From assembly GCA_016180435.1 (NCBI GenBank), contig JACPBG010000004.1, forward strand, positions 134,151 to 198,150: a stretch of 64,000 nt of DNA, read 5' to 3'. Numbering within the stretch: the first letter of the stretch is position 1; every line of letters starts with the position of its first letter. The position numbers were made by a program, and so were the translations under genes. Source of the DNA: Candidatus Sungiibacteriota bacterium. Lineage in GTDB: Bacteria; Patescibacteriota; Minisyncoccia; Sungbacterales; HO2-52-23. Of this stretch, positions 6,386 to 53,000 are shown piece by piece. The notes beneath the pieces were generated by a model. It was not told the DNA's origin. It ran no database searches and was given only the letters and a program-made list of their open reading frames with translations.

Positions 6386-7666
6386 ATGTATATGTCAATC
6401 AGTTTAAATTCACAGACAAAAAAGGCGTTAGTAGAAATTCTAAAATTTTCTTTAGAAAATCCTTATAGCGATTTTTATCGCCGAAAATATGCTCCACTAA
6501 AATTAAAGCATATTAACGAAGATAATATTGGAAATATTTTTGTATCTCTGCCGCTACTTACGAAGGATGATCTTTTGGCCTCACCTCCATTTGATCGCAT
6601 CTTTACAAAGATTCATTCTCCATATGTGATATCTAGCACTTCGGGTACAACCGGAAAGGGACCTGTGATCATATTTATAAATACACCAAGTGAAACAGCT
6701 GAAGGGCAATTGACTTGGGGAAAAATTAATGCCCAATGCGGATTATTTTTATTTCCACCCGGTGTGCAATGGCAATTGTTAACGACTATGATCCGCGCAT
6801 TCCCGGTTTATATCGGAAATCCGTATCAAATGAAAGAAACCGCCGAGATCGCATCACGAATAAAAATTGATACAATTGCTACAACTCCGACGGCATTGCA
6901 GCATTTTTTAATTTTTTTAGAACCAGCTTACGATATTTCAAAAATTAAGCACATTTTATTTAGGGGTGAGCCCTTGAGTAAAGCCCAGCAAACTTTTTTT
7001 AGAAATAAATTCCCCAATGCGATATTTAATTTGCTTTACGGGATGAGAGAAGCTGGACAGATTGGGGTTCAGTGCGATGTTTTGTCTATGCGTGAAGAAC
7101 CAATCTATCACCTTCGTTCAGATAAATTTTTTATAGAGATCTTGCCGGCTGAAAATGAGGAGGCGGGAGAATTAGTTCTAACCCACTTGCGAAAAGATCC
7201 TACGCTCCTGATACGCTATAGAACCGGGGATCTTGGTTGGTTTCTTCGGGATGAGAAATGTTCGTGCGAATTAAATTTTCCGCTATTTAAACTTTTTGGC
7301 AGAAATAGGCGAGAAACAATACATGCAGGCGGAGTTGTATTTGAAGCGGAAACTTTCAACGTCATTTTGAAAGACTTTTTGGAAAACATTCAAAATAATT
7401 TTGAAGCTCATTTCTATCAACGTTTAATCCAGGACAAAATTCAGTACGACATAGTTGTGCGGGTAATACCTAAGGGATCCGTTAATGAAATGTTAAAAAT
7501 CCGGCTGGAAGAATCCTTAAATAATCGTCTCCGTATATCAAATAGATTTTCTTTTTCCGAGCTTATACGTCAAGACCTATTTTCGCCAATTAAAGTTGAA
7601 TTTGCCGATCCTGATACCCAAATCTATAAAATGCCATTGTTATATAAATTGGTTTCGCATTTTTAA
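6386..7666 (+). CDS. PaaK/CapK/F390-synthetase-like adenylate-forming enzyme
   Basis: N-terminal DFYRRKYA motif, P-loop ISSTSGTTGKGPVIIF (SSGTTGKP-like), IRYRTGD motif; ~426 aa as in phenylacetate-CoA ligase family. Confidence 0.6.
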   Translation: MYMSISLNSQTKKALVEILKFSLENPYSDFYRRKYAPLKLKHINEDNIGNIFVSLPLLTKDDLLASPPFDRIFTKIHSPYVISSTSGTTGKGPVIIFINTPSETAEGQLTWGKINAQCGLFLFPPGVQWQLLTTMIRAFPVYIGNPYQMKETAEIASRIKIDTIATTPTALQHFLIFLEPAYDISKIKHILFRGEPLSKAQQTFFRNKFPNAIFNLLYGMREAGQIGVQCDVLSMREEPIYHLRSDKFFIEILPAENEEAGELVLTHLRKDPTLLIRYRTGDLGWFLRDEKCSCELNFPLFKLFGRNRRETIHAGGVVFEAETFNVILKDFLENIQNNFEAHFYQRLIQDKIQYDIVVRVIPKGSVNEMLKIRLEESLNNRLRISNRFSFSELIRQDLFSPIKVEFADPDTQIYKMPLLYKLVSHF

Positions 7667-19235: not shown

Positions 19236-20687
19236 TCAGAGAAGCCGGATGCATCTGTCTTCCGGTCTGTCCTGCCGGAATGTGTGGAATTCAGGCAGTT
19301 GCGCCTGAACCCAGTCCAGAGCCGGCGTTGATCCATGGCACAGACCCACAAATGGCTTTTGGGAGCGCGAGTTCCGTAAAATCTCGCCTATCCTTCTGAC
19401 TAAGGATTTGCGTAGAGAATGTCCGGTGGCGCGGTATTGCTCACAGCGCGCATTCACCCGGACCTCTTCAAATTTTTTATCCGTAACTTCCAGTAGAATA
19501 GTTGAGCCGCGTTCAGCCCGCAGGGCTTTATAACCATTGGTTCCGGGTGCCAGATACCCGGAAGCCCCGTACATTGCATTCTCGCGCGGCAGAAGTTCAC
19601 GCATGTATTGCGCCACCGGTCCATGCCCCATACCCGAAGGAGCCACTATCGCTCCAACTTTGCGATTAGAATCAAGCGCGCTTCCCACCGCATTTAAAAT
19701 TTCAATTTCTTCACTGTTGGCATTTACCGAGCGATCCCCCATACACCAGAAGCCGTCCTCTGACTCCATGATGTCCCAGAGTTTACGGGCCGATGGTCCG
19801 TCCAGATACACTCGAAGTCCGAGATCAGCCAATTTTCTGGCAAAAGTAGGCGCGCGATCCAAAGCAAAGGCCGAAGTCAGAAACCATCCGCCGGCTTTAT
19901 TGGTATTGTGCGCATCATCCGCCATGCGGATAATTTCTCTTTTCCAGAAGGTTTTTTCGTCCGTTCCTTTGGCAACATCTTCTGCGCAATTGGTGCAATC
20001 AATCGATAAAAGGTGGCTTATGCGTATGTCGTCTGGCGGAAGAGGCGCGCCGTCGGTGGTCAATTGCGCATGCGTGGCATAATCCCCGGAAAACATGAAT
20101 GTATGCTCGGTTTTTCCGGATTTGATAATGAATATAACCGAACAACTTCCCCGGATATGGCCGTTGCGCCATAAAAGCACGCTAATTTTGCCCGGAACCA
20201 GCTCTAAAATCTCTGGACGTTTTACAGCGTGTACGCGATCCAGGGTTTCTTCAATGTCGTCCTTATCATACGGCAGATTTTCCTTGCGCCGGTTAGAAAC
20301 ATTGAATTGATCGTAAAGCACGCGCGGAAGAAATGCGGCTGTGGGGCGAGTGCAGATAATTCGGCTGTCATGCGTAAGATGCCGTCTGATTTTTTTGAGC
20401 GCCACAGCTGCGGCGTGATCACGGTGCGCATGGGTCAAGAAGACGTGATCGATCTTTTTTACGCCGACGGAGTCCAGGATTGTTTGAAGTTTTTCCAAGT
20501 CCTGCGGAGCGAGCCAGGAAACTGCCGATACGGCGCCATCACTGTCTGTGCTCTCCATTCCGGCATCAATCAAATAAGCATGAATCTCTTTACCCAGCCG
20601 GACTACAAATAAGTAACAACTGGCTCCTAAGTTTGTAAGGGCGCGTACTCCAGTAGCGCCACCAAGTATATACAGCCATGCTTCCAT
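19236..20687 (-). CDS. Metallo-beta-lactamase-fold hydrolase, likely beta-CASP/RNA-processing nuclease family
   Basis: HVFLTHAHRDH (HxHxDH) motif, 483 aa with downstream His/Asp-rich motifs. Confidence 0.55.
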   Translation of the reverse strand: MEAWLYILGGATGVRALTNLGASCYLFVVRLGKEIHAYLIDAGMESTDSDGAVSAVSWLAPQDLEKLQTILDSVGVKKIDHVFLTHAHRDHAAAVALKKIRRHLTHDSRIICTRPTAAFLPRVLYDQFNVSNRRKENLPYDKDDIEETLDRVHAVKRPEILELVPGKISVLLWRNGHIRGSCSVIFIIKSGKTEHTFMFSGDYATHAQLTTDGAPLPPDDIRISHLLSIDCTNCAEDVAKGTDEKTFWKREIIRMADDAHNTNKAGGWFLTSAFALDRAPTFARKLADLGLRVYLDGPSARKLWDIMESEDGFWCMGDRSVNANSEEIEILNAVGSALDSNRKVGAIVAPSGMGHGPVAQYMRELLPRENAMYGASGYLAPGTNGYKALRAERGSTILLEVTDKKFEEVRVNARCEQYRATGHSLRKSLVRRIGEILRNSRSQKPFVGLCHGSTPALDWVQAQLPEFHTFRQDRPEDRCIRLL

Positions 20688-20875: not shown

Positions 20876-21104
20876 GTGAGCAACTACTACCCACATTTGA
20901 TGAATCGCATTTTTATCAGCGATTCGCGTAAATCGGCTAAAATTCGCAGAAATTCGTTCGGGTAGGTGGGCGATCTTTAACACCACGTTTGGGATCCCGC
21001 AAGGTGCGGGAATAAAATTTTGGACGGCAATGGTTGTTTTACGGGCATGTTACTTCCGGCCCAATCGGAAAACGGAAGCAAAAACCGAAACCTTAGGGGG
21101 GTTT

Positions 21105-22235
21105 ATGAAAAAGGAATTGTCAAAAAAGTTGTTTGGTCACACGGATCGGTCGCAGTTAAGTGCACAGCTTCAGGAGCGGTTAGATTCAATTCTAACCAAT
21201 ACTGTAGCTCCGATCATCTTCGATTTCGTGGACGTCGTGCTCCCACAGTTCGCGGAGCAGGGCGTCATCTTAGAGTCAGGCACGCCCGAACACATTACTG
21301 AAGTGCTTGGCGCAGAATTCTGCGCCAAAGTTACTGACTTGGGAAATAGAGTGTCCGAAGCGGTTCGGGGCGTGGAGGATAAACTCCGAGCTAGTCGGGA
21401 GACCGCGGACATGAGCAAACGGGTGCGTGGCTTTTTGGATGGATGGGCCAAGGACATCGCCAACCGATGTTACGGCCCCGCCAACGAAGAGTTCTTCTCC
21501 AAATATGGGGATCAGACCGACAACTTCATGTGTCTGGTGTTTCCCGGACAGGAAGTAAAACACTCGGCAATAAAGTTGGTCTTGGAGTGGGTGGGGCAGG
21601 AGAAGAGCCTACGGAACGACATTACTTCGGAGTCCCGGAAGGCGATTGCGCCGTTCCTACCGCAGGCCGCGAAAATTCTGGACGAGGAATTTGATAATCT
21701 TGACCAGAAAAGAGCGGCAAAACCCAAACGTGCTGCCCATAAGACCACAACCGAGTGGTTGTCGGCGCTTGATCGGCATGAATCCGATTGCAAACTGGAT
21801 CAGCTGGGTTTGAAGGAGGTGGGCCGTGCCATACGGTACCTTGAGAAGTGGGTGGAGGGAAAACCGCGCCGGGTTCACCAGGATGGAAACCGGGGAAGTC
21901 CGGAGAAATTCAATCCGGTCCCGGTTTTGGAAACCCAGCCCGCCGGAGAAGACGGCACCGCCGAGGAATCGTTAGTCGCTTCGCCCAAAAAACTTCTGTC
22001 GGCCCTGAAAAGGGTTCACAAAAAGTCCTTGGGTAAGGATGGGGCGGATGAGGAGTTAGTGGTCATACTCTGTAACGCGGTGGTGATCGCGGAAAAGCTG
22101 GTTCCATTGGCGCGAGCCAAAGGAGAAGATATTTCCGGATTACTGGCGGAAGTGGTTAGAACCGCTAAGGCCAGTGATAAGGAAGGCCTTGACGCCAATG
22201 TTTCCGCCATGCAGGTTATGGCGGAGAGCATGTAG
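21105..22235 (+). CDS. Hypothetical protein (GC-rich)
   Basis: ATG preceded by RBS aggggggt; 376 aa; followed by hairpin terminator. Confidence 0.45.
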   Translation: MKKELSKKLFGHTDRSQLSAQLQERLDSILTNTVAPIIFDFVDVVLPQFAEQGVILESGTPEHITEVLGAEFCAKVTDLGNRVSEAVRGVEDKLRASRETADMSKRVRGFLDGWAKDIANRCYGPANEEFFSKYGDQTDNFMCLVFPGQEVKHSAIKLVLEWVGQEKSLRNDITSESRKAIAPFLPQAAKILDEEFDNLDQKRAAKPKRAAHKTTTEWLSALDRHESDCKLDQLGLKEVGRAIRYLEKWVEGKPRRVHQDGNRGSPEKFNPVPVLETQPAGEDGTAEESLVASPKKLLSALKRVHKKSLGKDGADEELVVILCNAVVIAEKLVPLARAKGEDISGLLAEVVRTAKASDKEGLDANVSAMQVMAESM

Positions 22236-22270
22236 TCGCCACTGTTACAACGCCACGAAAGGAGGCATTT

Positions 22271-22305
22271 AAAAGCCCAGTACGGAAATCCGTACTGGGT
22301 TATTA
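22271..22305 (+). terminator. Hairpin terminator
   Basis: cccagtacggaaatccgtactggg followed by T-rich tract. Confidence 0.45.
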
Positions 22306-22377
22306 TAATTTAGGCGTTATCCCATTTGTCCGGAGATATATCTGCTTGTTTTATAATTTCTGCGATTAAGTTTTTAT

Positions 22378-22614
22378 CTATATCACGGCCGTGGGGATTA
22401 TACCGATATGCAAACCCGGAATAGAATCGCCATCTCTTAGTTTTAATAGTAGCCAATCTTCAAGAGCGGATTGCAATTCTTTCCGACAATCTTCTAAATT
22501 TTTGGCGTGGGCCCATACTCCTTGCAATCCCGGAATTTCACCCAAATAACTCTTATTTTTTAGAAGCTTATATCTGGCTTCTCTTAGTTTTTTTTCCACA
22601 AATTCAGAAATCAT
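22378..22614 (-). CDS. HicB-like (UPF0150) antitoxin-family protein, orphan
   Basis: YLGEIPGLQGVWAHAKNLEDCRKELQSALEDWLLLKL matches HicB/UPF0150 core (G-IP-LPG-...-TLEE-...-L-E-L); no HicA ORF found adjacent. Confidence 0.5.
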   Translation of the reverse strand: MISEFVEKKLREARYKLLKNKSYLGEIPGLQGVWAHAKNLEDCRKELQSALEDWLLLKLRDGDSIPGLHIGIIPTAVI

Positions 22615-22742
22615 ATTTTTATGTTACATATCTGATATGGTTGTGTAAATCTTTACTTTTTATTCAAAATAGTGTATAATATAAGATATGGATTTGCAGT
22701 AGTTAATTCTAAGGTTTAAGTTTAAATTATAGCTCAATTTTT

Positions 22743-24638
22743 ATGGTAACTGATAAAAATATGCGAAGAGAAGGGGCCCCGCCATCAAATCAAAATAATA
22801 CAGATGCGCCGATCGAGAAATCGGCCGTAAGCGGAAGCGGACAAAAACCGCAGGATATTTTGGATTTGGAAAAACAAATTGCCGAATCAAGAGATAAGAT
22901 TACGGGCGGATTGCGGGGAGAGGAATTAAAAGCGGAAAGCGAACGGCTCGTGGCACTGGTACGTGCCAAAAAAGAAAAAGAATCAAGCGGAGTACCTGCT
23001 AAAGAAAATATCCAGTCGTCCGCAGAAATAGGAGAGAAAGATAAGGGCCAAACTCCGGCATCCAAAAAGACGCGGAAGAAAAAGAAGGCAACTGCGGATG
23101 CCGAAACAGTGGAATCCGAAAAGACGCCTAAAGTCCCGGCTAACGAATTGGTAGAGAATGCGGCTCAAGAAACCGCCTCTAAAGTTAAAATTAAATTAGG
23201 CGAAAACGATTTGGCTAAAAAAGAAGTGGAAAAAAGGCAAGAACAATTTGCCGAAAATTTAAAAGAATTTTTGCGTAAAAATCCACGCGAACGGGATAAG
23301 GCCGAAGTTTATGAAGGATTAGCCAAGTCGTTCAATTATGATGCGGAGAAAATATTAGCAGCCACAGACGCCTTTGATGAAACGGGGGGTGTGATGGCCA
23401 AACGAAGAAAAGGCGCATATAAAGATGTGTTCACGATGCTGGGTGGAACATCCAAAGATAAAAATGCAGGAGTGGAAAAATCCGCAAAAGATAAAATTTC
23501 CGCGGATGAAAAAGAGCAACAGCCGGCTGATTTGGCCGAAGCGGTAAAAATCGATCCGGAGAAGCTTGAAAAGGAAATTGCTGAACTGAAACAGAAAATT
23601 ATCAGCGGGAAATATGCGGGCGAAGAATTAAAAACATTAAGTCAGGATCTCAAAAAACTTGTTAAGATGAGGCCGGCTGCGTCCAAACGGATTGCAGGAA
23701 AAAAAGCAGGTAAAGACACCGAAGATGCCGATGGAAAATTCAAAATATCTATGGGGGCCGGAAAATCGAAGTCGCCGCTACCGAAGGACGTGAAGACGAC
23801 GCCCGGACCGGGCGAACAGACGCCAACTCCGGCGGATACGGATACCGGAAAAATTGAAAGCATACGCACGGGTATTTTGGAAAAATATGCCGAGGGCAAG
23901 AAAGCGGAACTTACGGCGCGTAAAAAAGAGCTTGAGAAAAAAGATGCGCGAAACGCCGCGGAAAATGCGGAATATGAGGAATTGATTCGCGCCGAGCGCC
24001 TGGAGCATGTTATAAAATCACTCGCCATAATCGAGATCGGGGGAAAGCCCACCCCAGAATTCATGCAGCAATTCAGTCGTGATTTGATGAAAGCGGAAAA
24101 AGAAACGCTGGAATGGTACGAACTTCGCGGGAAAAACGAGACCCATCCGCCGGCAGAATTTTTCAGCGCCCTGATTGACCGGCTTCCCCAAGAAAGATAT
24201 CCGAAACTTCACGAATTGAAAGAAAAAAGCGGCAAGAAATTTAAGGATGTTGTGGAGAAACTGACCGATGCCCTGCATGAGCCGGATGACGAAAAATTCG
24301 AGGGGAAATTCGCCGACCTGGAGGGCAGTCAGCCGGTTTTGAAAGAGTTGCTGGGCGAGGAGGGATTGAAGCAGTTATTCAAAACGCTTCGCGGGATGGA
24401 ACATCTGCGTGTGGAGCGGGAATCCGGTGTTTTAACTCCGGAACAGGCCGAACAGCGAAGAGAAGAACTCAATCAAGCGCAAGGCCAGTTAGGATCAGCC
24501 ATGGAAAAGGCGTGGTCCATTGCCGGCCTCGTGGGTATTATGCTTTTGCTCGGATTGATTTTTATGATAATCGTGGAATTGGAAGCGATTGACTTTATGC
24601 TTAAAAAAACCAAAGGAGGGAAAGGAGGCATATTTTAA
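22743..24638 (+). CDS. Lys/Glu-rich coiled-coil protein with C-terminal transmembrane anchor
   Basis: 631 aa, extreme K/E content and heptad-like repeats, single C-terminal TM WSIAGLVGIMLLLGLIFMIIV; stop overlaps next start (ttttaaATG). Confidence 0.5.
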   Translation: MVTDKNMRREGAPPSNQNNTDAPIEKSAVSGSGQKPQDILDLEKQIAESRDKITGGLRGEELKAESERLVALVRAKKEKESSGVPAKENIQSSAEIGEKDKGQTPASKKTRKKKKATADAETVESEKTPKVPANELVENAAQETASKVKIKLGENDLAKKEVEKRQEQFAENLKEFLRKNPRERDKAEVYEGLAKSFNYDAEKILAATDAFDETGGVMAKRRKGAYKDVFTMLGGTSKDKNAGVEKSAKDKISADEKEQQPADLAEAVKIDPEKLEKEIAELKQKIISGKYAGEELKTLSQDLKKLVKMRPAASKRIAGKKAGKDTEDADGKFKISMGAGKSKSPLPKDVKTTPGPGEQTPTPADTDTGKIESIRTGILEKYAEGKKAELTARKKELEKKDARNAAENAEYEELIRAERLEHVIKSLAIIEIGGKPTPEFMQQFSRDLMKAEKETLEWYELRGKNETHPPAEFFSALIDRLPQERYPKLHELKEKSGKKFKDVVEKLTDALHEPDDEKFEGKFADLEGSQPVLKELLGEEGLKQLFKTLRGMEHLRVERESGVLTPEQAEQRREELNQAQGQLGSAMEKAWSIAGLVGIMLLLGLIFMIIVELEAIDFMLKKTKGGKGGIF

Positions 24639-25112
24639 ATGAATAAAGAATTTTTAAGAAAAGAAACGCCGGCAATATCTGCGGAAAAATCTCCTGAATC
24701 CGCGGGAGGGAGATTTGAAAAGATGGAAAATATGGTGCGATCGGATTTGGAGGCGGTGAATTTACGGACGCCCGAGGGAGGTGAAAAGGAGCAAAGGATA
24801 CTTCGCGGGTTAAGGGATAATTTTAATCCGGCGCCGCGTCTGCAAAAAGCGCTGATGGGAGCGGGGATCTTATTTTTCCTCGGCGGATGCGGTTTTCCGC
24901 TAATTGATGTGGATATCAAGGGCGGATTGAAGTTTGAGCCGTATCGGCCGCCACCCGAGCGATATGAATATAATATACAGCCGCGTTCGCGCGGCCGCGG
25001 CTGGGTGGATAGTGGCGGAGGCACCGGAATATGGCATGGATATGGAAAGCGTGACGGAAAGGTCAAACCGATTTGGGAGGAAACAGGCCCACGTCCGCGT
25101 AAGAAGAAATGA
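24639..25112 (+). CDS. Small membrane protein, translationally coupled to upstream gene
   Basis: TM segment LMGAGILFFLGGCGF; TAA/ATG overlap. Confidence 0.4.
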   Translation: MNKEFLRKETPAISAEKSPESAGGRFEKMENMVRSDLEAVNLRTPEGGEKEQRILRGLRDNFNPAPRLQKALMGAGILFFLGGCGFPLIDVDIKGGLKFEPYRPPPERYEYNIQPRSRGRGWVDSGGGTGIWHGYGKRDGKVKPIWEETGPRPRKKK

Positions 25113-25313
25113 AACAGAGGCCGTTGAATTATTCTTCGAGCGGAGCAAAGCGGAGTCGAGAAGCTTCTTTTTAAGGTAGTTTATCCTGAGTTTGTCGAAG
25201 GAAAGGATAACTTTTGGCTTATGTATCCTCTCGATAAGCTCGGGGAATAATTCAACGGTATCAAACATTAAGTGAGTGTTGCAAAAGTATAATTATGGTT
25301 TATTATTATCTAT

Positions 25314-28208
25314 ATGAGTGAAGAAGGACCAAAAAAAGAAACGCCAAAACCTCTTACTAAAGAAGAGATTGACGCATTTCTTAACGGATTTCCGAATGAT
25401 GCCCCGGCTCCAGCATCGGCTGAAGCGTCTCCTGTTGTGAATGAAAGTGAAGACGAAGAATTTGCGCGACTCGCGGAAGGTCGCCGGAATTGGAATTTAA
25501 GCAAGGATGAAACAGAACGTTTGGAAGAGTTAGAGCGGCAGAGAGCCAAAAAATCCACGGGAGCTGAAGTTACTCCAACGCCGCCGTTGATTATAAAACA
25601 AGCAATTCCTGTTTCGAAGAGTGCGGCACATCCGGATTCAATATTTTCAGGAATTTCTTCGCCTAAAAAAGACACAGAAGCGGCAGTTTCTCCGGCGCTG
25701 GCGGCTGCTACAGGACCAGAAGTTCCTCCGAAAGGATTAGAGGGGCAGAGCGTTGTACCTGATATGGGAGTGCCGACTGAACCCGGTGCGCCGCGACCTG
25801 CTCCAGAACAAGAACCCACGGAAATCGGACCGGAGAGCCGCGAAACATCACGCCTTTCCGACAAAGAACGGCTATTTGCGTATCGTATGTGGAGCGGGGA
25901 CTGGAAAGCCGCCGAAGTTCCGAAAGAAAAAGATAAACAAACTCCGGAAGCAATTGAGGCCAATGCCCAAGAGGTTTTTAAACTCCGCGGTGATGAGCTG
26001 GATGCATATGAAAAAGTATGCCGTACCCGATCGGCCCTGAAGAAACTGGAGAAAATCCGCGGAGGCGAAAAGGATTCGGGCGCCAAGGCGCGGGAAAAAA
26101 TTGAGAAAGAAAAGGAATTATTAGATGCCGAAAATAAATATCATACTGCAAAAGACGCGTATGAAAAGCGGCTGGATCGTTTCAAACTGGATTTACTTAA
26201 TGATTTTATAAAGAGCAACGAAGAAAAATTACCGGGCCTGACCAAAAAACAGCTGGCGGATGCGGCGCTTAAATGGCAGCATCAATCTTTGCTTGAAACC
26301 ATCCAAAATTTGGACGGTAATACGCGGCTGTTGGAACAGGAACGCGAAAGAAACGCGCGTGAAATTGGAATGTTGCGTAATATGTGGGAAAAATTCAATC
26401 AACTGCCGCAATGGCAAAAAGTTGCCATTGGAGTTGGAGCCGCGGGTTTGATTGGAGTAGGAACAGCCGGGTTGGGCGGAATGGTGCTGCCTTTGCTCGG
26501 ATTTTCCGCGCCAAGCAGTGTGGCGGCTTTGAGTGTAGGAGGGGTATATATGCAACGAAGGGCGATTGGCGGAACCCTGGGGGCCGGTTTGCAGGCCGTA
26601 GTGGATAAATTATTTATAAGCCGGCAATACGGTAAGGAGCGTGAAAAAGTCAGTAAAGAAGAGAAGCAGAAAACCTCCGAGAATTTAAACCAAGAGTTAA
26701 AAGATTATTTGGGAAATTGGGTGGAAGATGAGGAGAAAAAACTAAAAATGATGGAAATCGTAGATAAAGACGCCAAAGAATATCGTGCGCGCCTGGATGA
26801 TATAACGCGGCGCGAAGGCAAGACGCGCGGATGGTCGGCGCTTGCTACTGGTCTTATTGGCGGAGGATCGGTGCTCGCGTACGAGAACTGGGATAATATT
26901 GTTAATTTGTTCCAGGGAGCGCCTAAAGGAAGCGTTTTGGGCAGTGTGAATCATGATGACTTTTACGAAGCGTATCACCCTGATAAGTATAATCCGCATC
27001 CGGCCGTGCCTGCGGAGGGTGCGGCGGCCATTGAACCATCATCAGTAGAAACCGCGCAAGAAATGGGATATATTCCTTCGGAACCCTCATCCGTAGAAAC
27101 TGCCCAGGATATGCAAAATATCGGCGCTGCCATTGAGCCCTCTTCGGTAGAAACAGCGAAAGAGATGGGCACAGCGGCGCCCACCACAGAAGCTTCGGCA
27201 GCGGGCTATGACCCGCGTTTACTCGTTGACTTGGAGGGCGCGGCAACCGAGGACGCTTCTTTGGCAGATAAAGTATTTACCGTACAGGAGGGCGATTCTA
27301 TGTGGAAAATCACGCGCCAGATGGTGAAAAACGGACTAATTACCGAGGAGCAGTGGAAAGACGGTTGGCAAAATTCCATGGTGGAGATGGCCAATGGCAA
27401 AAAAGTTCCTATCCACGAATTGGGTCTGATTCATGCCGGAGATCAAGTGCGAATTTTAGAGGACACATCGGGCGGAATAGTTTTTTCCGTTGAAGATTAT
27501 CCGCATGACACGCTTAAACTTGCGGATAATGCGGGATATGCCGAATATCTGGATAAGGCCGGAAAACCCCAGCCCCAATGGCTGCAGGACGCGCTGGCCA
27601 TGAAATCAGGAGCAAAATCCGCGCTTGCAGAGCAGGGCGCGGAACTGCATGAATTGGTGCTTGCCTCGGCGTCCGATAACGCCAATGAAGTTATCCGTGG
27701 AACGCCGACATTTTTTAACGAGGCGATACGCGCGGAACTTGCCGAACAATTCGGCAATGCTACGCTTGCGCATCAGGAAGAGATGCTCGGAGAAATTGCG
27801 CTGGATCGCGCCAATATCGGGGATTTGGCAAGCGATGCCTGGGAAGACCCGGGACGCGCGCGGGATCTTGCCCGCAGTTTCAGTGAAGCATTTGGTTTTG
27901 AAAACGGATTGCGGACATCCGAGGCGTATCTTGCTAATCTGGAGGCGTTTAATACGCTTTTGCGCGATAATGAAATTTTTCCATCATATTTTAATAGGGT
28001 GAAAGATGTGCGCGTTGGAGAATTTATCGCATTGGCGAAAGGAGAAGCATCATTTGTTAATTCGCCATTCGGATATCTGCAAAATCAATTCCGGCTTTAT
28101 CCGGACAAATGGCAAAAGATCGCATCTTTTCTTGAACAATCTAAGCCCGGTCGACCGGAAAAGATGCTAACTTTGGGGAAATTTATTAAAGGCCTTGTAG
28201 GAGGATAA
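25314..28208 (+). CDS. Large multi-TM envelope protein with charged N-terminal region, 3x ~23-aa tandem repeats, LysM domain and C-terminal globular domain
   Basis: TM cluster VAIGVGAAGLIGVGTAGLGGMVLPLLGF; repeats EPSSVETAQEMG x3 (DNA 27030-27170); LysM-like FTVQEGDSMWKITRQMV...IHAGDQVRI. Confidence 0.5.
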   Translation: MSEEGPKKETPKPLTKEEIDAFLNGFPNDAPAPASAEASPVVNESEDEEFARLAEGRRNWNLSKDETERLEELERQRAKKSTGAEVTPTPPLIIKQAIPVSKSAAHPDSIFSGISSPKKDTEAAVSPALAAATGPEVPPKGLEGQSVVPDMGVPTEPGAPRPAPEQEPTEIGPESRETSRLSDKERLFAYRMWSGDWKAAEVPKEKDKQTPEAIEANAQEVFKLRGDELDAYEKVCRTRSALKKLEKIRGGEKDSGAKAREKIEKEKELLDAENKYHTAKDAYEKRLDRFKLDLLNDFIKSNEEKLPGLTKKQLADAALKWQHQSLLETIQNLDGNTRLLEQERERNAREIGMLRNMWEKFNQLPQWQKVAIGVGAAGLIGVGTAGLGGMVLPLLGFSAPSSVAALSVGGVYMQRRAIGGTLGAGLQAVVDKLFISRQYGKEREKVSKEEKQKTSENLNQELKDYLGNWVEDEEKKLKMMEIVDKDAKEYRARLDDITRREGKTRGWSALATGLIGGGSVLAYENWDNIVNLFQGAPKGSVLGSVNHDDFYEAYHPDKYNPHPAVPAEGAAAIEPSSVETAQEMGYIPSEPSSVETAQDMQNIGAAIEPSSVETAKEMGTAAPTTEASAAGYDPRLLVDLEGAATEDASLADKVFTVQEGDSMWKITRQMVKNGLITEEQWKDGWQNSMVEMANGKKVPIHELGLIHAGDQVRILEDTSGGIVFSVEDYPHDTLKLADNAGYAEYLDKAGKPQPQWLQDALAMKSGAKSALAEQGAELHELVLASASDNANEVIRGTPTFFNEAIRAELAEQFGNATLAHQEEMLGEIALDRANIGDLASDAWEDPGRARDLARSFSEAFGFENGLRTSEAYLANLEAFNTLLRDNEIFPSYFNRVKDVRVGEFIALAKGEASFVNSPFGYLQNQFRLYPDKWQKIASFLEQSKPGRPEKMLTLGKFIKGLVGG

Positions 28209-28259
28209 AATTATAACTAATAACTACAAACTACAAACTAAAAACTATTAACTAATTTT

Positions 28260-28589
28260 ATGCCAATCAAACAAATTCCAGTGGATGTTAAAAAATATTT
28301 AAAAGCCGACCTTTTTGCGGAACTCGGCATGAATAATTTAAATCCCGAGGAGCGAGTTTCGATGCTCGAAGCCATTGCGGGCGTGGTGCATCAGCGGGTC
28401 GCGCTGCGTCTTATGTCCGAACTCTCCTCGGATCAAAAAGACCAGCTGGAGACATTAGTTACGCGTCATCCGGATGATTCTGTTGCTATGGGATTATTTC
28501 TTAAATCCGAGGTTCCGAATATTGCGGATATTGTGAATGAGGAGGCGGCGGCGTATAAAAAAACGCTGATTGAGCGGATGAAGGCGTAA
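28260..28589 (+). CDS. Hypothetical small protein
   Basis: 109-aa ORF downstream of the large LysM protein; preceded by simple repeat aactacaaactacaaactaaaaacta. Confidence 0.35.
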   Translation: MPIKQIPVDVKKYLKADLFAELGMNNLNPEERVSMLEAIAGVVHQRVALRLMSELSSDQKDQLETLVTRHPDDSVAMGLFLKSEVPNIADIVNEEAAAYKKTLIERMKA

Positions 28590-28768
28590 GTAAAAAAACG
28601 TCCGAAAACTCTCCAAATATCACTTTTTGTCATTCTGAGGCATCAGCCGAAGAATCCCTATGAGATCCTTCGCTATCGCCCAGGATGACGACCAAAGAGA
28701 ATCATTTGTGAATTTTAAAGGAGGAGCCAGGGGGCTCCTCTTTTTGTTTGCCGTTGCACGGCGTCGCG

Positions 28769-29662
28769 TTATGGCGTTTTGGTTTTGGTCGCCGGTGTGG
28801 GAACTGCAACAGGCGACGTAGCTGGTGCCGGAGTTGCAACTGAAGCTACGACGGGGGCGGGAACGCACGTTAGATAGACGAGCGCCGATCGGTTCATGTC
28901 TTGCTCGCCGAATTTCGCTGTGGCTCCATGGCCCTCAAACGGCAAGCTCTTATTTAATGCCTTGCCGAGATACTCCGCAACGGCTTTCGCACGGTTTTGC
29001 GCAAGTTCGGGATTCAGATCTTTTTTGTTTCCGTCCAAGTAAGGCACCGTATCCGCGAATCCAGCAGCTGACGCAACCGTACATCTGCCTTTTTTTTCGA
29101 GCTCCGCGATCTCGTCCAGCCGTTTTTTCATCGTACCAGTGGGGTTAGATGATTTCGTCGCAAATCCGGAAACACGCAGAAGCCGGTTTTTATGGTCAAT
29201 ACCGCCAGTATCCTCCAATACGCCAAGTCGTCCTTCGGTCATCCGACGGACGCCGACAACCCTTTTTTCAAGAGCCGCGAGACGTGTGTTGGTCTCTTCG
29301 ACCGACCGGTCAAGTCGGCTCACCTTAGAGTTCGTTGTCGCGATCTCTCGCTCGGCTCGATCAATGCGACCCTTTTGCACGGTGATTGCCTGACCATGTG
29401 TGGCAATGGAATCCCCGGTCGCTTTCAGGCGATCCTCATGCCTGTATATCGTCTCGGCATGCTCGGAAAGCGCCCCCCGGTGTTTCTCAACGTCTTGCCG
29501 CAAAAGTTCAGTTCCCCGCTGAACTATTCGTGACCCCACTGTAAGGCGATCAACATCGCCCCGCAGAGCCGCAACCTCCTCCTTGGTTGCGAGAACCGAG
29601 CAGCCCGAGCCCGCCGCCATTACTACCGTTAAAAACGCCAATAAAAAAGAACCATTCTTCAT
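28769..29662 (-). CDS. OmpA/MotB-like peptidoglycan-binding lipoprotein with coiled-coil region and Pro/Thr-rich tail
   Basis: Lipoprotein signal AAGSGC; C-terminal AAGFADTVPY...GNKKDLNPELAQNRAKAVAEYL matches the OmpA_C-like motif (GHTD-x-G...N-x-LS-x-RA-x-AV); GC-rich. Confidence 0.55.
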   Translation of the reverse strand: MKNGSFLLAFLTVVMAAGSGCSVLATKEEVAALRGDVDRLTVGSRIVQRGTELLRQDVEKHRGALSEHAETIYRHEDRLKATGDSIATHGQAITVQKGRIDRAEREIATTNSKVSRLDRSVEETNTRLAALEKRVVGVRRMTEGRLGVLEDTGGIDHKNRLLRVSGFATKSSNPTGTMKKRLDEIAELEKKGRCTVASAAGFADTVPYLDGNKKDLNPELAQNRAKAVAEYLGKALNKSLPFEGHGATAKFGEQDMNRSALVYLTCVPAPVVASVATPAPATSPVAVPTPATKTKTP

Positions 29663-29819
29663 AGCCCCTCCTTGCTGGTTTTGATTTTTCCCTATTCGGG
29701 AAGACCAGCTATATGCGATATATTATACACTATATTCAATAAAATGGCAAGCTTTGGAAATTTGTCATAAAGACCCTATTTTGTTATGCTGTTTTTAGCT
29801 TATTTTTTAGAGGCGTACC

Positions 29820-30881
29820 TTGAAAACTATTATCATCGGATTTGTAATCGTGGCATTGTTGGTTTTGGTTGGATCAACCGCGGCTTTAGCGCAGTCAGCT
29901 TTACTGGATTTTAATTTTACGGAACCGCCAATGCATGCAAAATCGTATTCACAGCCGCCTCCAGCAGAAAATCTTCAAACCATTAGGGTGGAAGTTGACC
30001 ATTGCAATTCAGGTGTCGCTCCTTTTTGTTTTGAGTACGTCGTGCAAAATAATGATACCGTGTGGGGTATTGCGAGATTTTTACGCGCCCCCGGGGAGCG
30101 AACCGTTGATATGAAAAACCGAATCGTGGCGATTGAACGCAATCGAGCGCAATTTGAAAAGGTCTCACCGCGATTGAAGAAAATTTCAAACGAACCCGGA
30201 CATTGGATTTTTCCAGGACAGAAAATTATGATTCCGGTCGTGTCGTTGGTGGAAAAACAGGCCGTTGAGGCGGCCGCGAAAAAAGCAGCGAAAGAAGCCG
30301 CTGAAAAACTTGCCGTAGATGCTCGCGCTCGAGAAGCCGAATTTGCATTGAATGCGTTGAAGATTTCTATCACAGTTGTCGTTTTTGCCGTTGTTTTCAT
30401 GTTGATAGCGATTCACCGTAAAGCAAAAAGATATTCGGCGCCGCGCACGCCGGAGGAACGGGCAGCAATGATCAATGATCCGAATTGGAAAATGGGTGAA
30501 CCGAGTGAACCGAAAGATCCGGATAGGAATAAGATAAAACCGTCCACTTGGGATGATTGGATGCCCAAAATGCTGCTCATCGGATTCACATTTTTTGCGT
30601 CCGCGTCCGATGTTCACGCCGGAGAAATCACCAACTTGAATGATCCCGAAAATCCGTTGTTGATCGTCCTTATTATTTTAGTTGCTGTTCGATATCTGTT
30701 TCCATTACTTTTATTCCCATCACTTAATTTTCTCTCGCGCGTTTTATCTTCGAAGACCGAAAACCATGATAAAGAATTATCCCGGAACTCCCGTCCTATC
30801 CGTACGATCAATGACTCAATAACGCATCGTCCCAAAGCTAAGGTCATTCCACTGTTTCAAAATGAGCCGCGGCATAAATAA
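29820..30881 (+). CDS. LysM-domain membrane protein
   Basis: Signal peptide, LysM-like YVVQNNDTVWGIARFL...IFPGQKIMIP, then TM ITVVVFAVVFMLIAI and further hydrophobic segments. Confidence 0.5.
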   Translation: MKTIIIGFVIVALLVLVGSTAALAQSALLDFNFTEPPMHAKSYSQPPPAENLQTIRVEVDHCNSGVAPFCFEYVVQNNDTVWGIARFLRAPGERTVDMKNRIVAIERNRAQFEKVSPRLKKISNEPGHWIFPGQKIMIPVVSLVEKQAVEAAAKKAAKEAAEKLAVDARAREAEFALNALKISITVVVFAVVFMLIAIHRKAKRYSAPRTPEERAAMINDPNWKMGEPSEPKDPDRNKIKPSTWDDWMPKMLLIGFTFFASASDVHAGEITNLNDPENPLLIVLIILVAVRYLFPLLLFPSLNFLSRVLSSKTENHDKELSRNSRPIRTINDSITHRPKAKVIPLFQNEPRHK

Positions 30882-38642: not shown

Positions 38643-38762
38643 AGATAAATTTCTAATTGCCTAATTGTCTAATTTCTAATAAAATGCCCAATAAAGAAAT
38701 TAGGAATTTAGGCCTTAGAAATTTTATTAGGTGAATTAGGAATTAGGTGAATTTTGAATTTT
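38643..38762. repeat. Repeat family A copy 2
   Basis: Near-identical to 33877-33995. Confidence 0.8.
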
Positions 38763-39812
38763 AGAGAATCTATGTTTCTCAAAACATTTTTTGTCATATT
38801 CGCCCTGATTTTATTGGTATTCTTGCCTATTTTTGCGGATGCCGCTTTAGTCCCGGAATGTACTGGGATTAAAAAAGGCGGGGCTACTGATGGCTCGGAT
38901 GATGTTCAGGTCTCTGGATATTGCACTATTTGCGATCTTTTTGTCCTTATCCAAAATATCCTGAAATTTATCTGGATTTATATTGCTTTTCCCTTGGCTG
39001 CTCTAATGTTGGTCTACGGCGGATTTATGATGCTGGTTCCGGGCGTTTCGGGCGAAAAGGGCGCGGCCTCTTTTTCCAAAGGCCGAAAGATAATTTTTAA
39101 CACTCTTATCGGGATTACCATAGTGTTTCTGGCGTGGCTCGGCATAGATACAATTATGAAAACCGTATCTTATAATAGCGGCGGCGAGTTCGGATGGTGG
39201 AATGAAATTAAATGCATTTCCGCGCCGATTACGTTTGGAGGCGGCGGAGGCGGCGGAGGCGGAGGAGGCGGAGGAGGTGGAGGCGGAGGAGGTGGAGGAG
39301 GAGGGGGCGGAGGAGGCGGAGGGGGTGGAGGACTTGGCGGTGGTCAAACCTGCAGTGGATGCGTTAAAACCGGAAATTTTCTTTTGGGTCCAAAGCCCTG
39401 TGAGGGAGCTGCATCTGGACAAATTTGTCAAGTTAATAGTGCTCTTAATGATAAGTTGGCTACTTTAAATAATTCTATTTTTGGTGAGAAGGGTTCTGGA
39501 TTTATGGTGGTTACGGAAACATGGCCGCCCGTTGGCTATTCCCCAACTAAACCCAACGGGATTCATGCGGATTCTTGTCATGGAGCGGCAACCTGTGTAG
39601 ATATGAGATGCGGATCGGGAAGTGCCGCGGATGTAAACTATTGCATTCAAAAAACACAAACAGCCGGACTTAACCCATGTTATGAAGTAAAACCGGGCGA
39701 TAAAAAGAAATTTGTTGATGCGGGCGTGCCATCTAATAGAGTAGCGGAGGTTTCGAGAATTACCGGCCCGCATTTTTCCGTATACCTTGATTCTGCGCAC
39801 GGATGTCCATAA
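38754..39812 (+). CDS. VirB2/TrbC-like pilin-type protein fused to a ~37-residue polyglycine linker and a C-terminal Cys-rich domain
   Basis: Signal peptide + two hydrophobic helices (IWIYIAFPLAALMLVYGGFMMLV ; LIGITIVFLAWLGIDTIM) as in T4SS pilins; GGN repeat DNA 39235-39345; C-terminal domain with ~12 Cys. Confidence 0.45.
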   Translation: MNFRESMFLKTFFVIFALILLVFLPIFADAALVPECTGIKKGGATDGSDDVQVSGYCTICDLFVLIQNILKFIWIYIAFPLAALMLVYGGFMMLVPGVSGEKGAASFSKGRKIIFNTLIGITIVFLAWLGIDTIMKTVSYNSGGEFGWWNEIKCISAPITFGGGGGGGGGGGGGGGGGGGGGGGGGGGGGGGGLGGGQTCSGCVKTGNFLLGPKPCEGAASGQICQVNSALNDKLATLNNSIFGEKGSGFMVVTETWPPVGYSPTKPNGIHADSCHGAATCVDMRCGSGSAADVNYCIQKTQTAGLNPCYEVKPGDKKKFVDAGVPSNRVAEVSRITGPHFSVYLDSAHGCP

Positions 39813-50085: not shown

Positions 50086-53000
50086 ATGAAAAAAAGATCA
50101 ACTTATTGGCTTGAAGATAACGAAAGAAGATTAAACCTATTGCGTGAACACCGACTTGACCCATGGGAAGAACTTGAGAAATTGTTTCCGGAAAAAACCA
50201 GACGTGCCATTAAACATACAATGTCCGGGTATAGAATTCGGAGGGATCGTGATAAAGTGCCTGATGCGAACGTTGGCCCACAAAAGTGGACTCAAGAACT
50301 TATTGAAGATCTCCGTGAAAATCGAAATAAGCCCTGGCCATTTCTTACAAAAAGATTCGGCTGTCGTAAACGTCAGCTGGAGAGTATTATGGGCGAAAAT
50401 GACATCCGGCGCGACCGTCTTGAAAATATCATCTGGGACGAGAATCACGAGCGGATTCTAATTGAAGCTGCGCTTGAATCTCATTCTTATAGTCCGTATA
50501 TTTCGGCGGGAAGAAAAAAACTTAGGGACATTATCATAGCAACACGCGCGAAATTAAAAGAATTAGGATTCAGGGGAAGTACAACTCATAATGCATTAAA
50601 GATGCATATACACAATTTAACGCCGGAACGAGTTGCCGCGCTTGGCTTCAAAGAGATCCTAATACCGATTATCTGGGGAAAATCCGAAAAGGGTAAAGTT
50701 GAAGAAGTAACGGTCAGGTGGTGGGAAGAACTTGAAAAATCCGACTCGGAACGGTATCAGAAGTTCAAGGATGAATTTTTGAACCGCTGGCGTTCTGATT
50801 ACCGTGTTGCCGGAAATACCAATGAGGACCTGCTTAAAGAATGGCAGGAAGCGGTAAGCGTAGACGGTTTAAAGGCCGCCGCAAGATTTTTGGGAGAAAC
50901 GCGAACTCGAATTGAAATCGTACGCGAATATAAAAGCGTGGAGGAACTAGATAAGAAGATTGACCGCCGCATGACCGAGCTTATTTACGAAAATATACTT
51001 AAGGAGGCGGGTGCTGAAGGTTTGCGGCAGCGCATTTTAATTGAATTTGCCGATGAAATTGCTAAGATCAAATTCAATTTGACTCCTGAGTATTTCGGAA
51101 AGAAGCTTGGCCGAATTTTGTGGGTTGACGAAAAGGGCGGCGCGCTTGCTACTCTGAGGGAGTTTATCGAAAAAGGAATCGTGGATAAATTTACCGAGTA
51201 CCATCGTCATATCCCTTTGGAAATGATTCAGTCCAAAGAACGGGAAGAAAGGGGTCTTACGACCGTTAAGCATCCTGCGCCCTTTGCTTCTAATTTCGTT
51301 CACGGCATCGGTCGCATTATAGGAGACGGAGATAAAGATATTCCGGAGGAAGAAATCCGCAATTTCAAACTGCCGGAAATATCTTTTGATAAGCCCCTGG
51401 AGATAGCGTTTCGGGACCCAAGAAATTTTAAGTTTGGAATCATGAGCGGTCCGCAGCTTGGTCTATTGCATACTCCTCGTATGGAGCAAAATCCAATTCG
51501 TCGCAGTTTCGCCTATGCCGAAAGAAATAAATGGGAAGCGTTTCTCCTAACAGGAATTTTTGATCTTGATATGACCAAGGCCGCGGGTCCGGTCAAGGGC
51601 CTGCGTTCTCTTTATAGCGGCAGAAATACCAACGTCAATGTGCTTGATCCCGGATATCAAGAAGTGGCGCTTGGCGTCATAAACGCGATTAAAGCCAACG
51701 AATTTACCAGCGAGATTATTTATGAAACCGCCAAAGAGGCAGCCAAAAATCTGTTGTGCGGATGGTGGAATGTTTTTATCCGTCCCGATAAGACCCCTGA
51801 ATTTTCGGGAAAAGTGTTGATTGTATTCGGTCCCAAGGAATTTGAAACCGTGATGGCCGCGGCGCATGCGGAAATCGTATTCATAACAGGACGCAAACAA
51901 GGAGAGCTTCGTGCTCTGGCAGCTGCAGCAGCACGCGCCATGAGGCGTGATGAGAAAGAAATTCGCGCGATTGATAAAAAACTTGCGGATCTGGAGCGCG
52001 ACCTTACTCGAGAAGAAGATCCGGCGGTTAAAGAAAAATTGCAAAAGACATATGAAGATCTGCGCAACACTTTAACCGAGGATAAGAAAGAAATTGAAGA
52101 ACTAAAAGCCGAATTCCGCCGACTTAAGGAACAGGAGTCGCGCACCCGCATGACTAACGTTACACCCGAAGATTGGCAGCGGTTCCATAAATTGGCACTG
52201 GCATTGATTTCTCTTCTCGTTCAACGCGCCATTCCAGGATCGCAAGTGATATCTTTGGGCGATACATTCATAAAAGTCGGACCGGAGCCAAAGGATAAAG
52301 TTCATATTGTTATCCCGGGGCATTTGCAAGTGACCGATGCGCTTCTCTCCAAATTTTGTGATTCTTATGCGTCCCTGGCGCTTTCAATGAAGATGGCGGA
52401 AACAGTTGTAATCTGCCATCCGCACGCGATTTCCTATGCCGTGACAGCGCGTGAAGTTGATGCCAAAGGAAAACGTGAATACTCCCCGCGAGTGTATGTG
52501 GCGCCAATTCTAGTGGATGGGAAATTCATGCGAGAGAAAACGAGCCAAATTGTTCGGGGCGGAGGGCATCCGATTAGGAGCGTGGTTAATCATCCCATGT
52601 TTCAGGGTGGACTCCTGGAAATTACCGCTACCAACGGTATGGTAAATGCATCTCCGGTTACGATTGAGGCACTGGGTTTTTACGAAACAATCGCGAGGCG
52701 TAAATCGCCGACTAAATATCCTACCGGTAAATACATCTGGATTATGGCTGCCACTGACCAGCATTGGGGAGGGCGCGCCAAGGAATTTTTGCGTAACCCT
52801 AGGGTTGGTAAAAGCTTGGGTATGGCCGAGGCGGTATTTTATCTTATGCATATGTCTGGTTACGGAGACGGCGACAAATTACCGCCATTCCATATGTTCG
52901 TGGTGAATGACGACCCGACTCAAGGACACCATTTTCCTGCAGAAAAAGAGCCACATCGGCACGAAATGCAGCACTATCGTTTCGAAAAAGAACTGCATGA

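Follow-up and report, generated by a model that had tools for sequence, protein, structure and literature searches.

We analysed a 64,000-nucleotide stretch of contig JACPBG010000004.1 from a Candidatus Sungiibacteriota bacterium (hereafter the window), in which an initial annotation, made from the letters alone, had read six consecutive genes as an envelope-spanning scaffold. These genes are referred to here as A631, B157, C964, D109, E297 and F353, and all six open reading frames (ORFs) were present where the initial annotation had placed them (Table 1). We found that the region is a conserved two-gene module, C964 and D109, set among lineage-specific envelope genes, and not a six-gene machine. 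C964 belongs to an unannotated protein family of the candidate phyla radiation (CPR, or Patescibacteria), and D109, judged by its sequence, belongs to DUF5663. The presence of a DUF5663 gene beside a gene of the 964-aa family is the single robust association at this locus, and it had been overlooked. In NCBI, a Candidatus Sungbacteria metagenome-assembled genome (MAG) of the CPR encodes two hypothetical proteins, HYT98_04430 and HYT98_04420, to which C964 and A631, respectively, are identical or nearly so.

To assign a family to D109, we performed hmmscan, which matched 78 of the 84 positions of the PF18908 profile (E = 9.2 × 10−4, 20.2 bits; cut-off 23.7). A PF18908 match is also precomputed for a protein identical to D109, and likewise for all of its syntenic homologues. 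The earlier statement that no protein of the cluster matches a named system held in Pfam, NCBIfam, PHROGs and PADLOC, with the exception that the 109-aa protein is Pfam DUF5663. We found no signal peptide and no transmembrane (TM) segment in D109 or in DUF5663; the protein is predicted to be small and soluble, is taken as cytoplasmic, and would be helical according to the Pfam family description. A PDB sequence match of DUF5663 to summed protein A repeats was rejected as a repeat-summation artefact. Pfam describes no function for DUF5663, we found no mention of DUF5663 or PF18908 in the searchable literature, and the text of a Saccharibacteria transposon sequencing paper (PMC10633639) mentions neither LysM nor DUF proteins.

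We next considered a DUF5663 gene to be paired when it lay within one gene of a protein carrying the TM module of the C964 family. Across both search directions, DUF5663 adjoined a C964-family gene in 12 of 12 distinct informative loci, which came from Parcubacteria-group, Saccharibacteria and Sungbacteria-type MAGs and from untyped metagenome contigs. The DUF5663 gene (~105 codons) was directly downstream of the family gene in the window, in five loci labelled L001, L004, L005, L006 and L008, and in the P0003 locus, and it was one small gene away in L007 and L010. The reverse search, which started from DUF5663, yielded four loci in GTDB genomes, of which two are Parcubacteria-group MAGs, one is of Saccharibacteria and one of Sungiibacteriota. 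All four loci have a family gene directly upstream; as one of them, L011, is of the same lineage as L001, three were new, giving the total of 12. L009 ends at its family gene and was left out of the count. DUF5663 was 49-60% identical across loci where the large partner was 25-33% identical. The TM module with its flanking cytoplasmic helices was the only module common to all DUF5663-linked family members; together with the lack of a signal or TM segment in DUF5663, this points to an interaction in the cytoplasm or at the membrane side.

The C964 family was exposed by exhaustive HMMER search alone. Using a profile of C964 and its 70%-identical orthologue, we found 85 representatives (50% clustering) at E < 1 × 10−3, 15 of them at E < 1 × 10−30. 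Word-index searches with C964, with A631 or with a 15-sequence profile gave almost nothing, probably because charged low-complexity words swamped their candidate lists. Family proteins ranged from 357 to 1461 residues in length, most of them between 600 and 1460. Iterative local jackhmmer resolved C964 into the modules N (aa 186-365) and TM (aa 366-545), preceded by a charged and variable N-terminus (aa 1-185) and followed by a linker, also variable (aa 546-650), and two outer modules, L and C (Table 1). The combination of TM and L modules was the commonest family core, and the outer part was replaced in some members. Among the 46 family members that we scanned against Pfam, two carried an N-terminal PP2C phosphatase domain, and no other Pfam domain was recognised.

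The membrane part of C964 was modelled with AlphaFold2 (AF2) from the family alignment. The model of aa 186-545 was all-helical, with six long helices, a predicted local distance difference test score (pLDDT) of 81.3 and a predicted TM-score (pTM) of 0.71. In it, long cytoplasmic helices run into a Gly-rich hairpin, followed by a charged helical hairpin and then a third TM segment, the last of which fell below the hydropathy cut-off and was read from the sequence and the AF2 helix. The charged N-region, the Gly/Ala-rich hydrophobic cluster and the C-terminal domain (conserved) of the initial annotation were borne out. In the family consensus, basic clusters stand before the hairpin (PRWKR), after it (GxRxxR) and before the third TM segment (KEGRxR), and the stretch after the third TM segment is acidic or neutral. 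By the positive-inside rule, this charge pattern suggests an N-in protein with three TM helices and its C-terminus out, which would place the LysM-like module described below outside the cell.

Within the linker, C964 carries three copies of a peptide repeat. These had been described as three exact repeats of ~23 aa; the number of copies was right, but the repeats are not exact, and consist of an 11-aa core with a period of 16-18 aa. No repeat was found at the DNA level, where the copies differ at synonymous sites, and this suggests maintenance of the peptide and not a fresh duplication. The repeats were retained in the 70%-identical orthologue and not in the wider family. A PDB sequence match of C964 to designed "Pizza" repeats was rejected as a repeat-summation artefact.

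The Gly-rich hairpin raises the idea that C964 oligomerises into a pore or conduit, making it a wall-anchored channel or export component. Repeated small-residue (GxxxG-like) motifs in the hairpin fit this idea, as do the best Foldseek matches, which were ABC-exporter TM domains such as McjD (E = 0.46, prob 0.93, TM-score 0.37). However, these matches were not significant, long helices are generic, Pfam returned no glycine-zipper or transporter family, and the conserved neighbourhood held no ATPase or other energising partner. We regard a pore as most improbable.

Outside the membrane, the AF2 model of aa 640-964 (family alignment; pLDDT 87) starts with a beta-alpha-alpha-beta unit to which strands are added, continues with two helices and, after a flexible break, ends in a helical C-terminal domain; a strand at model positions 15-17, helices at 24-33 and 39-48 and the strands after them were modelled with high confidence. 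The L module corresponds to the LysM-like beta-alpha-alpha-beta unit with inserted strands and the two helices that follow (pLDDT ~90); no other element of the ectodomain is as well conserved in the family (GLxHxGDQV, WL). The LysM motif first reported in C964 is supported as a LysM-like module, and its sequence match is below the Pfam threshold. Full-length C964 had no Pfam match to LysM (PF01476) at E ≤ 1, and the excised L module matched positions 2-15 of the 43-position profile at E = 0.13 (12.7 bits; cut-off 20.9). Matches to Pfam LysM at E ≤ 1 were seen for 2 of 20 family L modules. In an hhalign comparison with a small, hand-compiled LysM alignment, the L module scored 83.6%, with confident alignment over the first 15 columns only, which cover the first strand and helix. 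NCBIfam gave weak matches to the LysM proteins YneA, SafA and Kbp, and Foldseek of the ectodomain against PDB gave no LysM structure at E < 1. The C module was found in ~39 of 86 family sequences scanned, some of them partial; it was modelled in C964 with pLDDT > 90 and had no fold match in PDB or BFVD.

Our results establish the gene pair and its family, together with the module map and confident models of the helical part and the ectodomain. From these we propose that the C964/DUF5663 module is a wall-to-cytoplasm tether or sensor, a proposal to which we give an even chance. The disordered, charged N-terminus and the long-helix bundle of C964 would lie in the cytoplasm. The chain would then enter the membrane as a Gly-rich two-helix hairpin, form a charged helical hairpin back in the cytoplasm and cross again at the third TM segment, and a Pro/Ala/Glu-rich linker, the divergent LysM-like module and the helical C-terminal domain would be exposed outside. 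The outer module would grip cell wall glycan, and the cytoplasmic bundle together with DUF5663 would form a platform for cytoplasmic partners. The variable N-terminus may serve as an exchangeable output or docking end, which in two relatives is a PP2C phosphatase.

Several observations weigh against this proposal. The LysM assignment in C964 is below every curated threshold, its confident alignment is limited to the first 15 columns, and the L module is absent altogether from some family members. AF2 confidence fell below 50 pLDDT over the second half of the Gly-rich hairpin, and the topology is based on hydropathy and charge rules. We found no characterised homologue of C964, and Foldseek of the N+TM and ectodomain models against PDB and BFVD found no significant fold. 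Contact between C964 and DUF5663 is suggested by their conserved adjacency alone. Moreover, the 12 loci are few and were reached through homology to the window, so the frequency of pairing may be overestimated. A role of C964 in wall binding, signalling or scaffolding is accordingly one that we infer.

It is also possible that C964 is primarily a transmembrane signalling receptor, in which the LysM-like module senses wall fragments or wall state by a logic like that of PASTA kinases and PP2C phosphatases. The signal would run through the long helices and reach the output region at the N-terminus, with DUF5663 as a cytoplasmic adaptor or target. The PP2C domain stands at the N-terminal position in 2 of 46 relatives, long continuous helices connect the membrane and cytoplasmic parts in the AF2 model, and the small partner gene is conserved. 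However, the N-terminus of C964 and of most family members is disordered and charged and contains neither a catalytic nor a DNA-binding domain (for C964, no catalytic domain was found in Pfam or NCBIfam), and no kinase or regulator is conserved nearby. We consider a dedicated receptor rather unlikely. A more far-reaching reading would make the C964-family/DUF5663 pair a Patescibacteria-specific core envelope organiser, a wall-anchored transmembrane hub that replaces canonical morphogenesis, division or wall-sensing systems and is essential in cultivable Saccharibacteria; reduced Patescibacteria genomes are reported to lack such canonical systems. We think this reading quite unlikely.

We class the C964/DUF5663 pair with wall-binding transmembrane proteins, among which its fold and its partner are uncharacterised. 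Like the LysM membrane proteins YneA of Bacillus and Kbp/YgaU, the membrane-anchored C964 is predicted to present a small beta-alpha-alpha-beta module outside, and it shares with LysM proteins the T-V-x-x-G-D-S/T-x-W motif at the start of the module. Unlike in YneA and Kbp, the module of C964 scores below all curated thresholds and has strands inserted and helices added. Its setting differs as well: C964 is 964 aa long and has three TM segments, a large bundle of cytoplasmic helices and DUF5663 as a partner, whereas proteins of the YneA type are small and bitopic and lack a DUF5663 partner. A second comparison is with the PASTA kinases PrkC/StkP and the PP2C phosphatases PrpC/PhpP of monoderms, in which an extracellular wall-binding domain is likewise joined through the membrane to a cytoplasmic effector; the two C964-family members with an N-terminal PP2C domain strengthen this likeness. 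In contrast to that system, C964 has no kinase or phosphatase domain, its outer module is LysM-like and not PASTA, and its membrane part comprises three helices and a long-helix bundle in place of a single span.

The original proposal was that all six proteins build a single scaffold across the envelope, which would serve surface attachment, division or episymbiotic contact; the tail-anchored A631 and C964 would sit at the membrane, and the proteins with LysM or OmpA-like domains would hold the structure to the wall. The six genes are indeed contiguous, and A631, B157, C964 and D109 lie on one strand with short gaps between them, but the OmpA-like E297, counted in the proposed cluster, is transcribed from the opposite strand. 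Membrane or export signals were found in five of the six proteins, F353 probably contains a LysM, and a region of E297 bears a weak likeness to OmpA_C. The closest relative of the locus, L001, matches the Parcubacteria GW2011_GWA2_45_30 loci L011, L016 and L017, and in its lineage the gene order is beta-CASP, a gene like that of the 401-aa protein in Table 1, HicA/HicB, A, B, C, D, F, S1 and metallo-beta-lactamase (MBL) hydrolase (A to F being the six genes by initial letter), so that the order A-B-C-D-F recurs in a sister lineage.

Synteny in related genomes had been named beforehand as the test of the scaffold, and it was limited to this one narrow clade, where E297 is missing (the gene is absent from L001 and L011). 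We found homologues of A631, B157 and F353 in the GWA2_45_30-like lineage only (L001, L011 and L015-L017), where their order is the same, and a metagenome scan with the A631 tail found nothing beyond it. No homologue of A631, B157, E297 or F353 was near the clear C964 homologues in L004, L005, L012, L013 and L014, and the more distant loci retain only C-D. No gene was tied to host contact or cell division, the neighbours being housekeeping genes (S1, GyrA and a beta-CASP nuclease, with FtsH in two loci). We therefore consider a six-protein scaffold very unlikely. It remains reasonable to read A631, C964, F353 and E297 singly as envelope proteins, and A631, B157, F353 and E297 probably add to the envelope proteins of this lineage, standing around the conserved C964/D109 pair.

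A631 is Lys/Glu-rich (90 Lys and 83 Glu) and has one hydrophobic segment, 20 residues from its C-terminus, as first described. Hydropathy indicated no N-terminal hydrophobic segment or signal; with a single predicted TM segment within ~40 residues of the C-terminus, A631 reads as a tail-anchored protein, though its C-terminal tail is basic (KKTKGGKGG) and its orientation is ambiguous. The coiled coil attributed to it was not recovered, as a crude 28-residue heptad scan gave 0 windows over threshold, compared with 25 in E297 and ~0.1-0.6 in shuffled sequences. The close junction of B157 and A631 was confirmed: B157 starts on the base right after the A631 stop codon. Given the shared strand, the abutting frames and a promoter-like site, A631 and B157 may be co-transcribed with C964 and D109, and they could be lineage-specific accessories of the pair.

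B157 has one hydrophobic segment, which ends in LGGC, and a basic Gly/Arg/Pro-rich C-terminal part. The LGGC (tested with the pattern [LVI][ASTVI][GAS]C) is a possible lipobox and follows the only hydrophobic segment, 70 residues from the annotated start. In related assemblies the orthologue is broken into two ORFs at differing points (33+118 aa and 89+66 aa; L001 9462-9932, L011 2654-3125, and L016 and L017 8802-9273). The C-terminal ~118 aa with LGGC, 91% identical in L001, is the only consistently intact part, so the true start in the window may be internal. The product may be a small basic lipoprotein, as far as its sequence tells.

The stretch covering the A631 TM tail and B157 (24501-25116 vs L001 9324-9936) is the best conserved of the locus, with 90% DNA identity compared with 72-78% for C964 and D109. 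Recent transfer of this stretch was rejected, as the DNA is 90% and not 100% identical. The last 46 aa of A631 are virtually identical to L001, whereas the aligned C-terminal half as a whole is 43% identical and the remainder has diverged far more, suggesting that the tail is under much stronger constraint. Separately, the part of B157 that leads up to and into its hydrophobic helix (LRGLRDNFNPAPRLQKALMGAGILFFLG) is similar to aa 342-395 of C964, before its first TM segment (LRNMWEKFNQLPQWQKVAIGVGAAGLIG), with 35% identity over 54 aa by BLASTP and a phmmer E of 2 × 10−5 vs the L001 orthologue. This likeness could reflect either a motif for insertion or contact that the two proteins share or a duplication of part of one gene.

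E297 has the features first ascribed to it, with a signal-like N-terminus ending at Cys21, a strong heptad pattern over aa 21-144 and a Pro/Thr/Ala tail; its OmpA_C match falls below the curated threshold. The match to OmpA_C (PF00691), a weak domain at aa 167-250, covered positions 2-66 of 98 (E = 0.0016, 19.1 bits; cut-off 27.2), and NCBIfam gave weak matches to YiaD, TssL, PdsO and MotB. An Asp (FADTVP) and an Arg (NRAKAV) are present, by inspection, in the positions expected of the peptidoglycan-binding motif. The putative lipobox, a hydrophobic N-terminus followed by GSGC, is non-canonical, with Gly at -3. A PDB match of E297 to phage gp26 was rejected as a coiled-coil artefact. E297 weakly resembles the OmpA_C/MotB/Pal anchors in its lipoprotein-like N-terminus and in the C-terminal region aligning to OmpA. 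It differs from OmpA and Pal in its score below the cut-off, in the 120-residue heptad coiled coil between anchor and domain, in a gene not conserved with the rest of the locus, and in its host, a CPR bacterium not known to have an outer membrane.

F353 has a signal-like N-terminus, a probable LysM with a 24-aa insertion (~aa 72-140) and then two or three TM segments, and an orthologue occupies the same position in L001. The view of F353 as a second LysM membrane protein gained support from hhalign (96.9% over all 43 columns, spanning the 24-aa insertion, against the small hand-compiled LysM alignment), but F353 missed the curated Pfam threshold, matching the N-terminal 14 positions of LysM at E = 0.002 (18.5 bits; cut-off 20.9). 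In NCBIfam, a SafA match covered the C-terminal 11 positions (aa 129-139), alongside weak YneA/Kbp-type matches. For both F353 and E297, a role as envelope proteins that bind the wall is plausible, and neither has a demonstrated link to C964 and D109.

Table 1. Features of the window, with coordinates, strand, basis of the call and amino acid identity to the L001 orthologue
Feature	Position	Strand	Description or basis	Identity to L001
A631	22743-24638	+	631 aa; ORF list	43% (C-terminal half only)
A631 hydrophobic segment (aa 593-611)	24519-24575	+	hydropathy	
B157	24639-25112	+	157 aa; ORF list	91%
C964	25314-28208	+	964 aa; ORF list	70%
C964 N and TM modules (aa 186-545)	25869-26948	+	AF2, hydropathy, family consensus	
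C964 segment resembling B157 (aa 342-395)	26337-26498	+	BLASTP, phmmer	
C964 Gly-rich hydrophobic hairpin (aa 369-412)	26418-26549	+	hydropathy	
C964 third TM segment (aa 507-525)	26832-26888	+	sequence reading and AF2 helix	
C964 three peptide repeats, EPSSVETA[QK][ED]M (aa 574, 590, 608)	27033-27170	+	linker after last TM	
C964 L module (aa 651-775)	27264-27638	+	alignment, AF2, hhalign, Pfam	
C964 C module (aa 780-964)	27651-28205	+	helical domain ending PGRxE...T..FLK	
D109	28260-28589	+	109 aa; DUF5663 (PF18908)	84%
E297	28769-29662	-	297 aa; ORF list	
F353	29820-30881	+	353 aa; TTG start	39%
beta-CASP/MBL nuclease gene	19236-20687	-		
401-aa soluble protein	21030-22235	+	no family match	23% (sister lineage)
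Terminator-like hairpin	22274-22301			
HicB/UPF0150-like antitoxin gene	22378-22614	-	Pfam E = 2 × 10−26	
Promoter-like site, TTTACT-17-TATAAT	22652-22680	+	consensus match only	
ATAACTA-like tandem repeat	28213-28256		AT-rich, ~6 copies	
352-aa protein	38754-39812	+	weak T4SS-pilin match (E = 5 × 10−4)	
1265-aa ORF	50086-53883	+	no Pfam match	

The window as a whole is ordinary chromosome, with genes for ribosomal protein S1, an MBL hydrolase, GyrA, a beta-CASP nuclease, TruD, IMPDH, a solute-binding protein and tRNAs; PHROGs and PADLOC gave no phage or defence signal in it save coiled-coil noise on E297. The promoter-like site lies in the AT-rich gap 5' of A631, and a transcription unit A-B-C-D may begin there. 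A strong terminator-like hairpin ends the preceding unit. The 401-aa protein ends in this hairpin and has a counterpart at the same position in the sister lineage. The HicB-like antitoxin gene has no HicA toxin gene beside it, whereas in the sister contig L001 HicA (6604-6816) adjoins HicB. A DNA alignment of 22254-22686 with L001 6546-7141 showed the window to be ~160 nt shorter at this point, which suggests a deletion of the toxin gene. The AT-rich tandem repeat fills the 51-nt gap between C964 and D109; this spacer is similar in the sister contig and unlike in more distant loci, and we saw no conserved element on alignment of C-D intergenic spacers.

Around the C964-family gene, the beta-CASP/MBL nuclease gene lies a few genes upstream in the window, in L001 (3408-4874), in L004 (4183-5592) and at the start of L014. 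S1, MBL and GyrA adjoin in the window, as do S1 and MBL in L001, where the locus ends; in L005, S1, MBL and GyrA directly flank the C964-family/DUF5663 pair, and FtsH adjoins in L004 and L008. The pair thus seems to be set in a semi-conserved housekeeping neighbourhood. Directly upstream of distant family members in L004 (7176-9193) and L013 (1-3647) are proteins with 37-40% K/R/D/E and no detectable similarity to A631, a theme that may or may not be meaningful. Elsewhere in the window, a 352-aa protein gave a weak T4SS-pilin match, and a giant 1265-aa ORF had no similarity to the C964 family.

CPR bacteria make up a large share of bacterial diversity, and their envelope biology is mostly unknown. 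The fixed pairing of DUF5663 with a family of large membrane proteins is new and gives PF18908 its first functional context. As the pair recurs in Parcubacteria-group, Saccharibacteria and Sungbacteria-type genomes amid housekeeping genes, it is a concrete candidate for lineage-specific coupling of the wall to the cytoplasm. Given the Saccharibacteria homologue (L013), genetically tractable strains may allow this idea to be tested, should they carry the pair.

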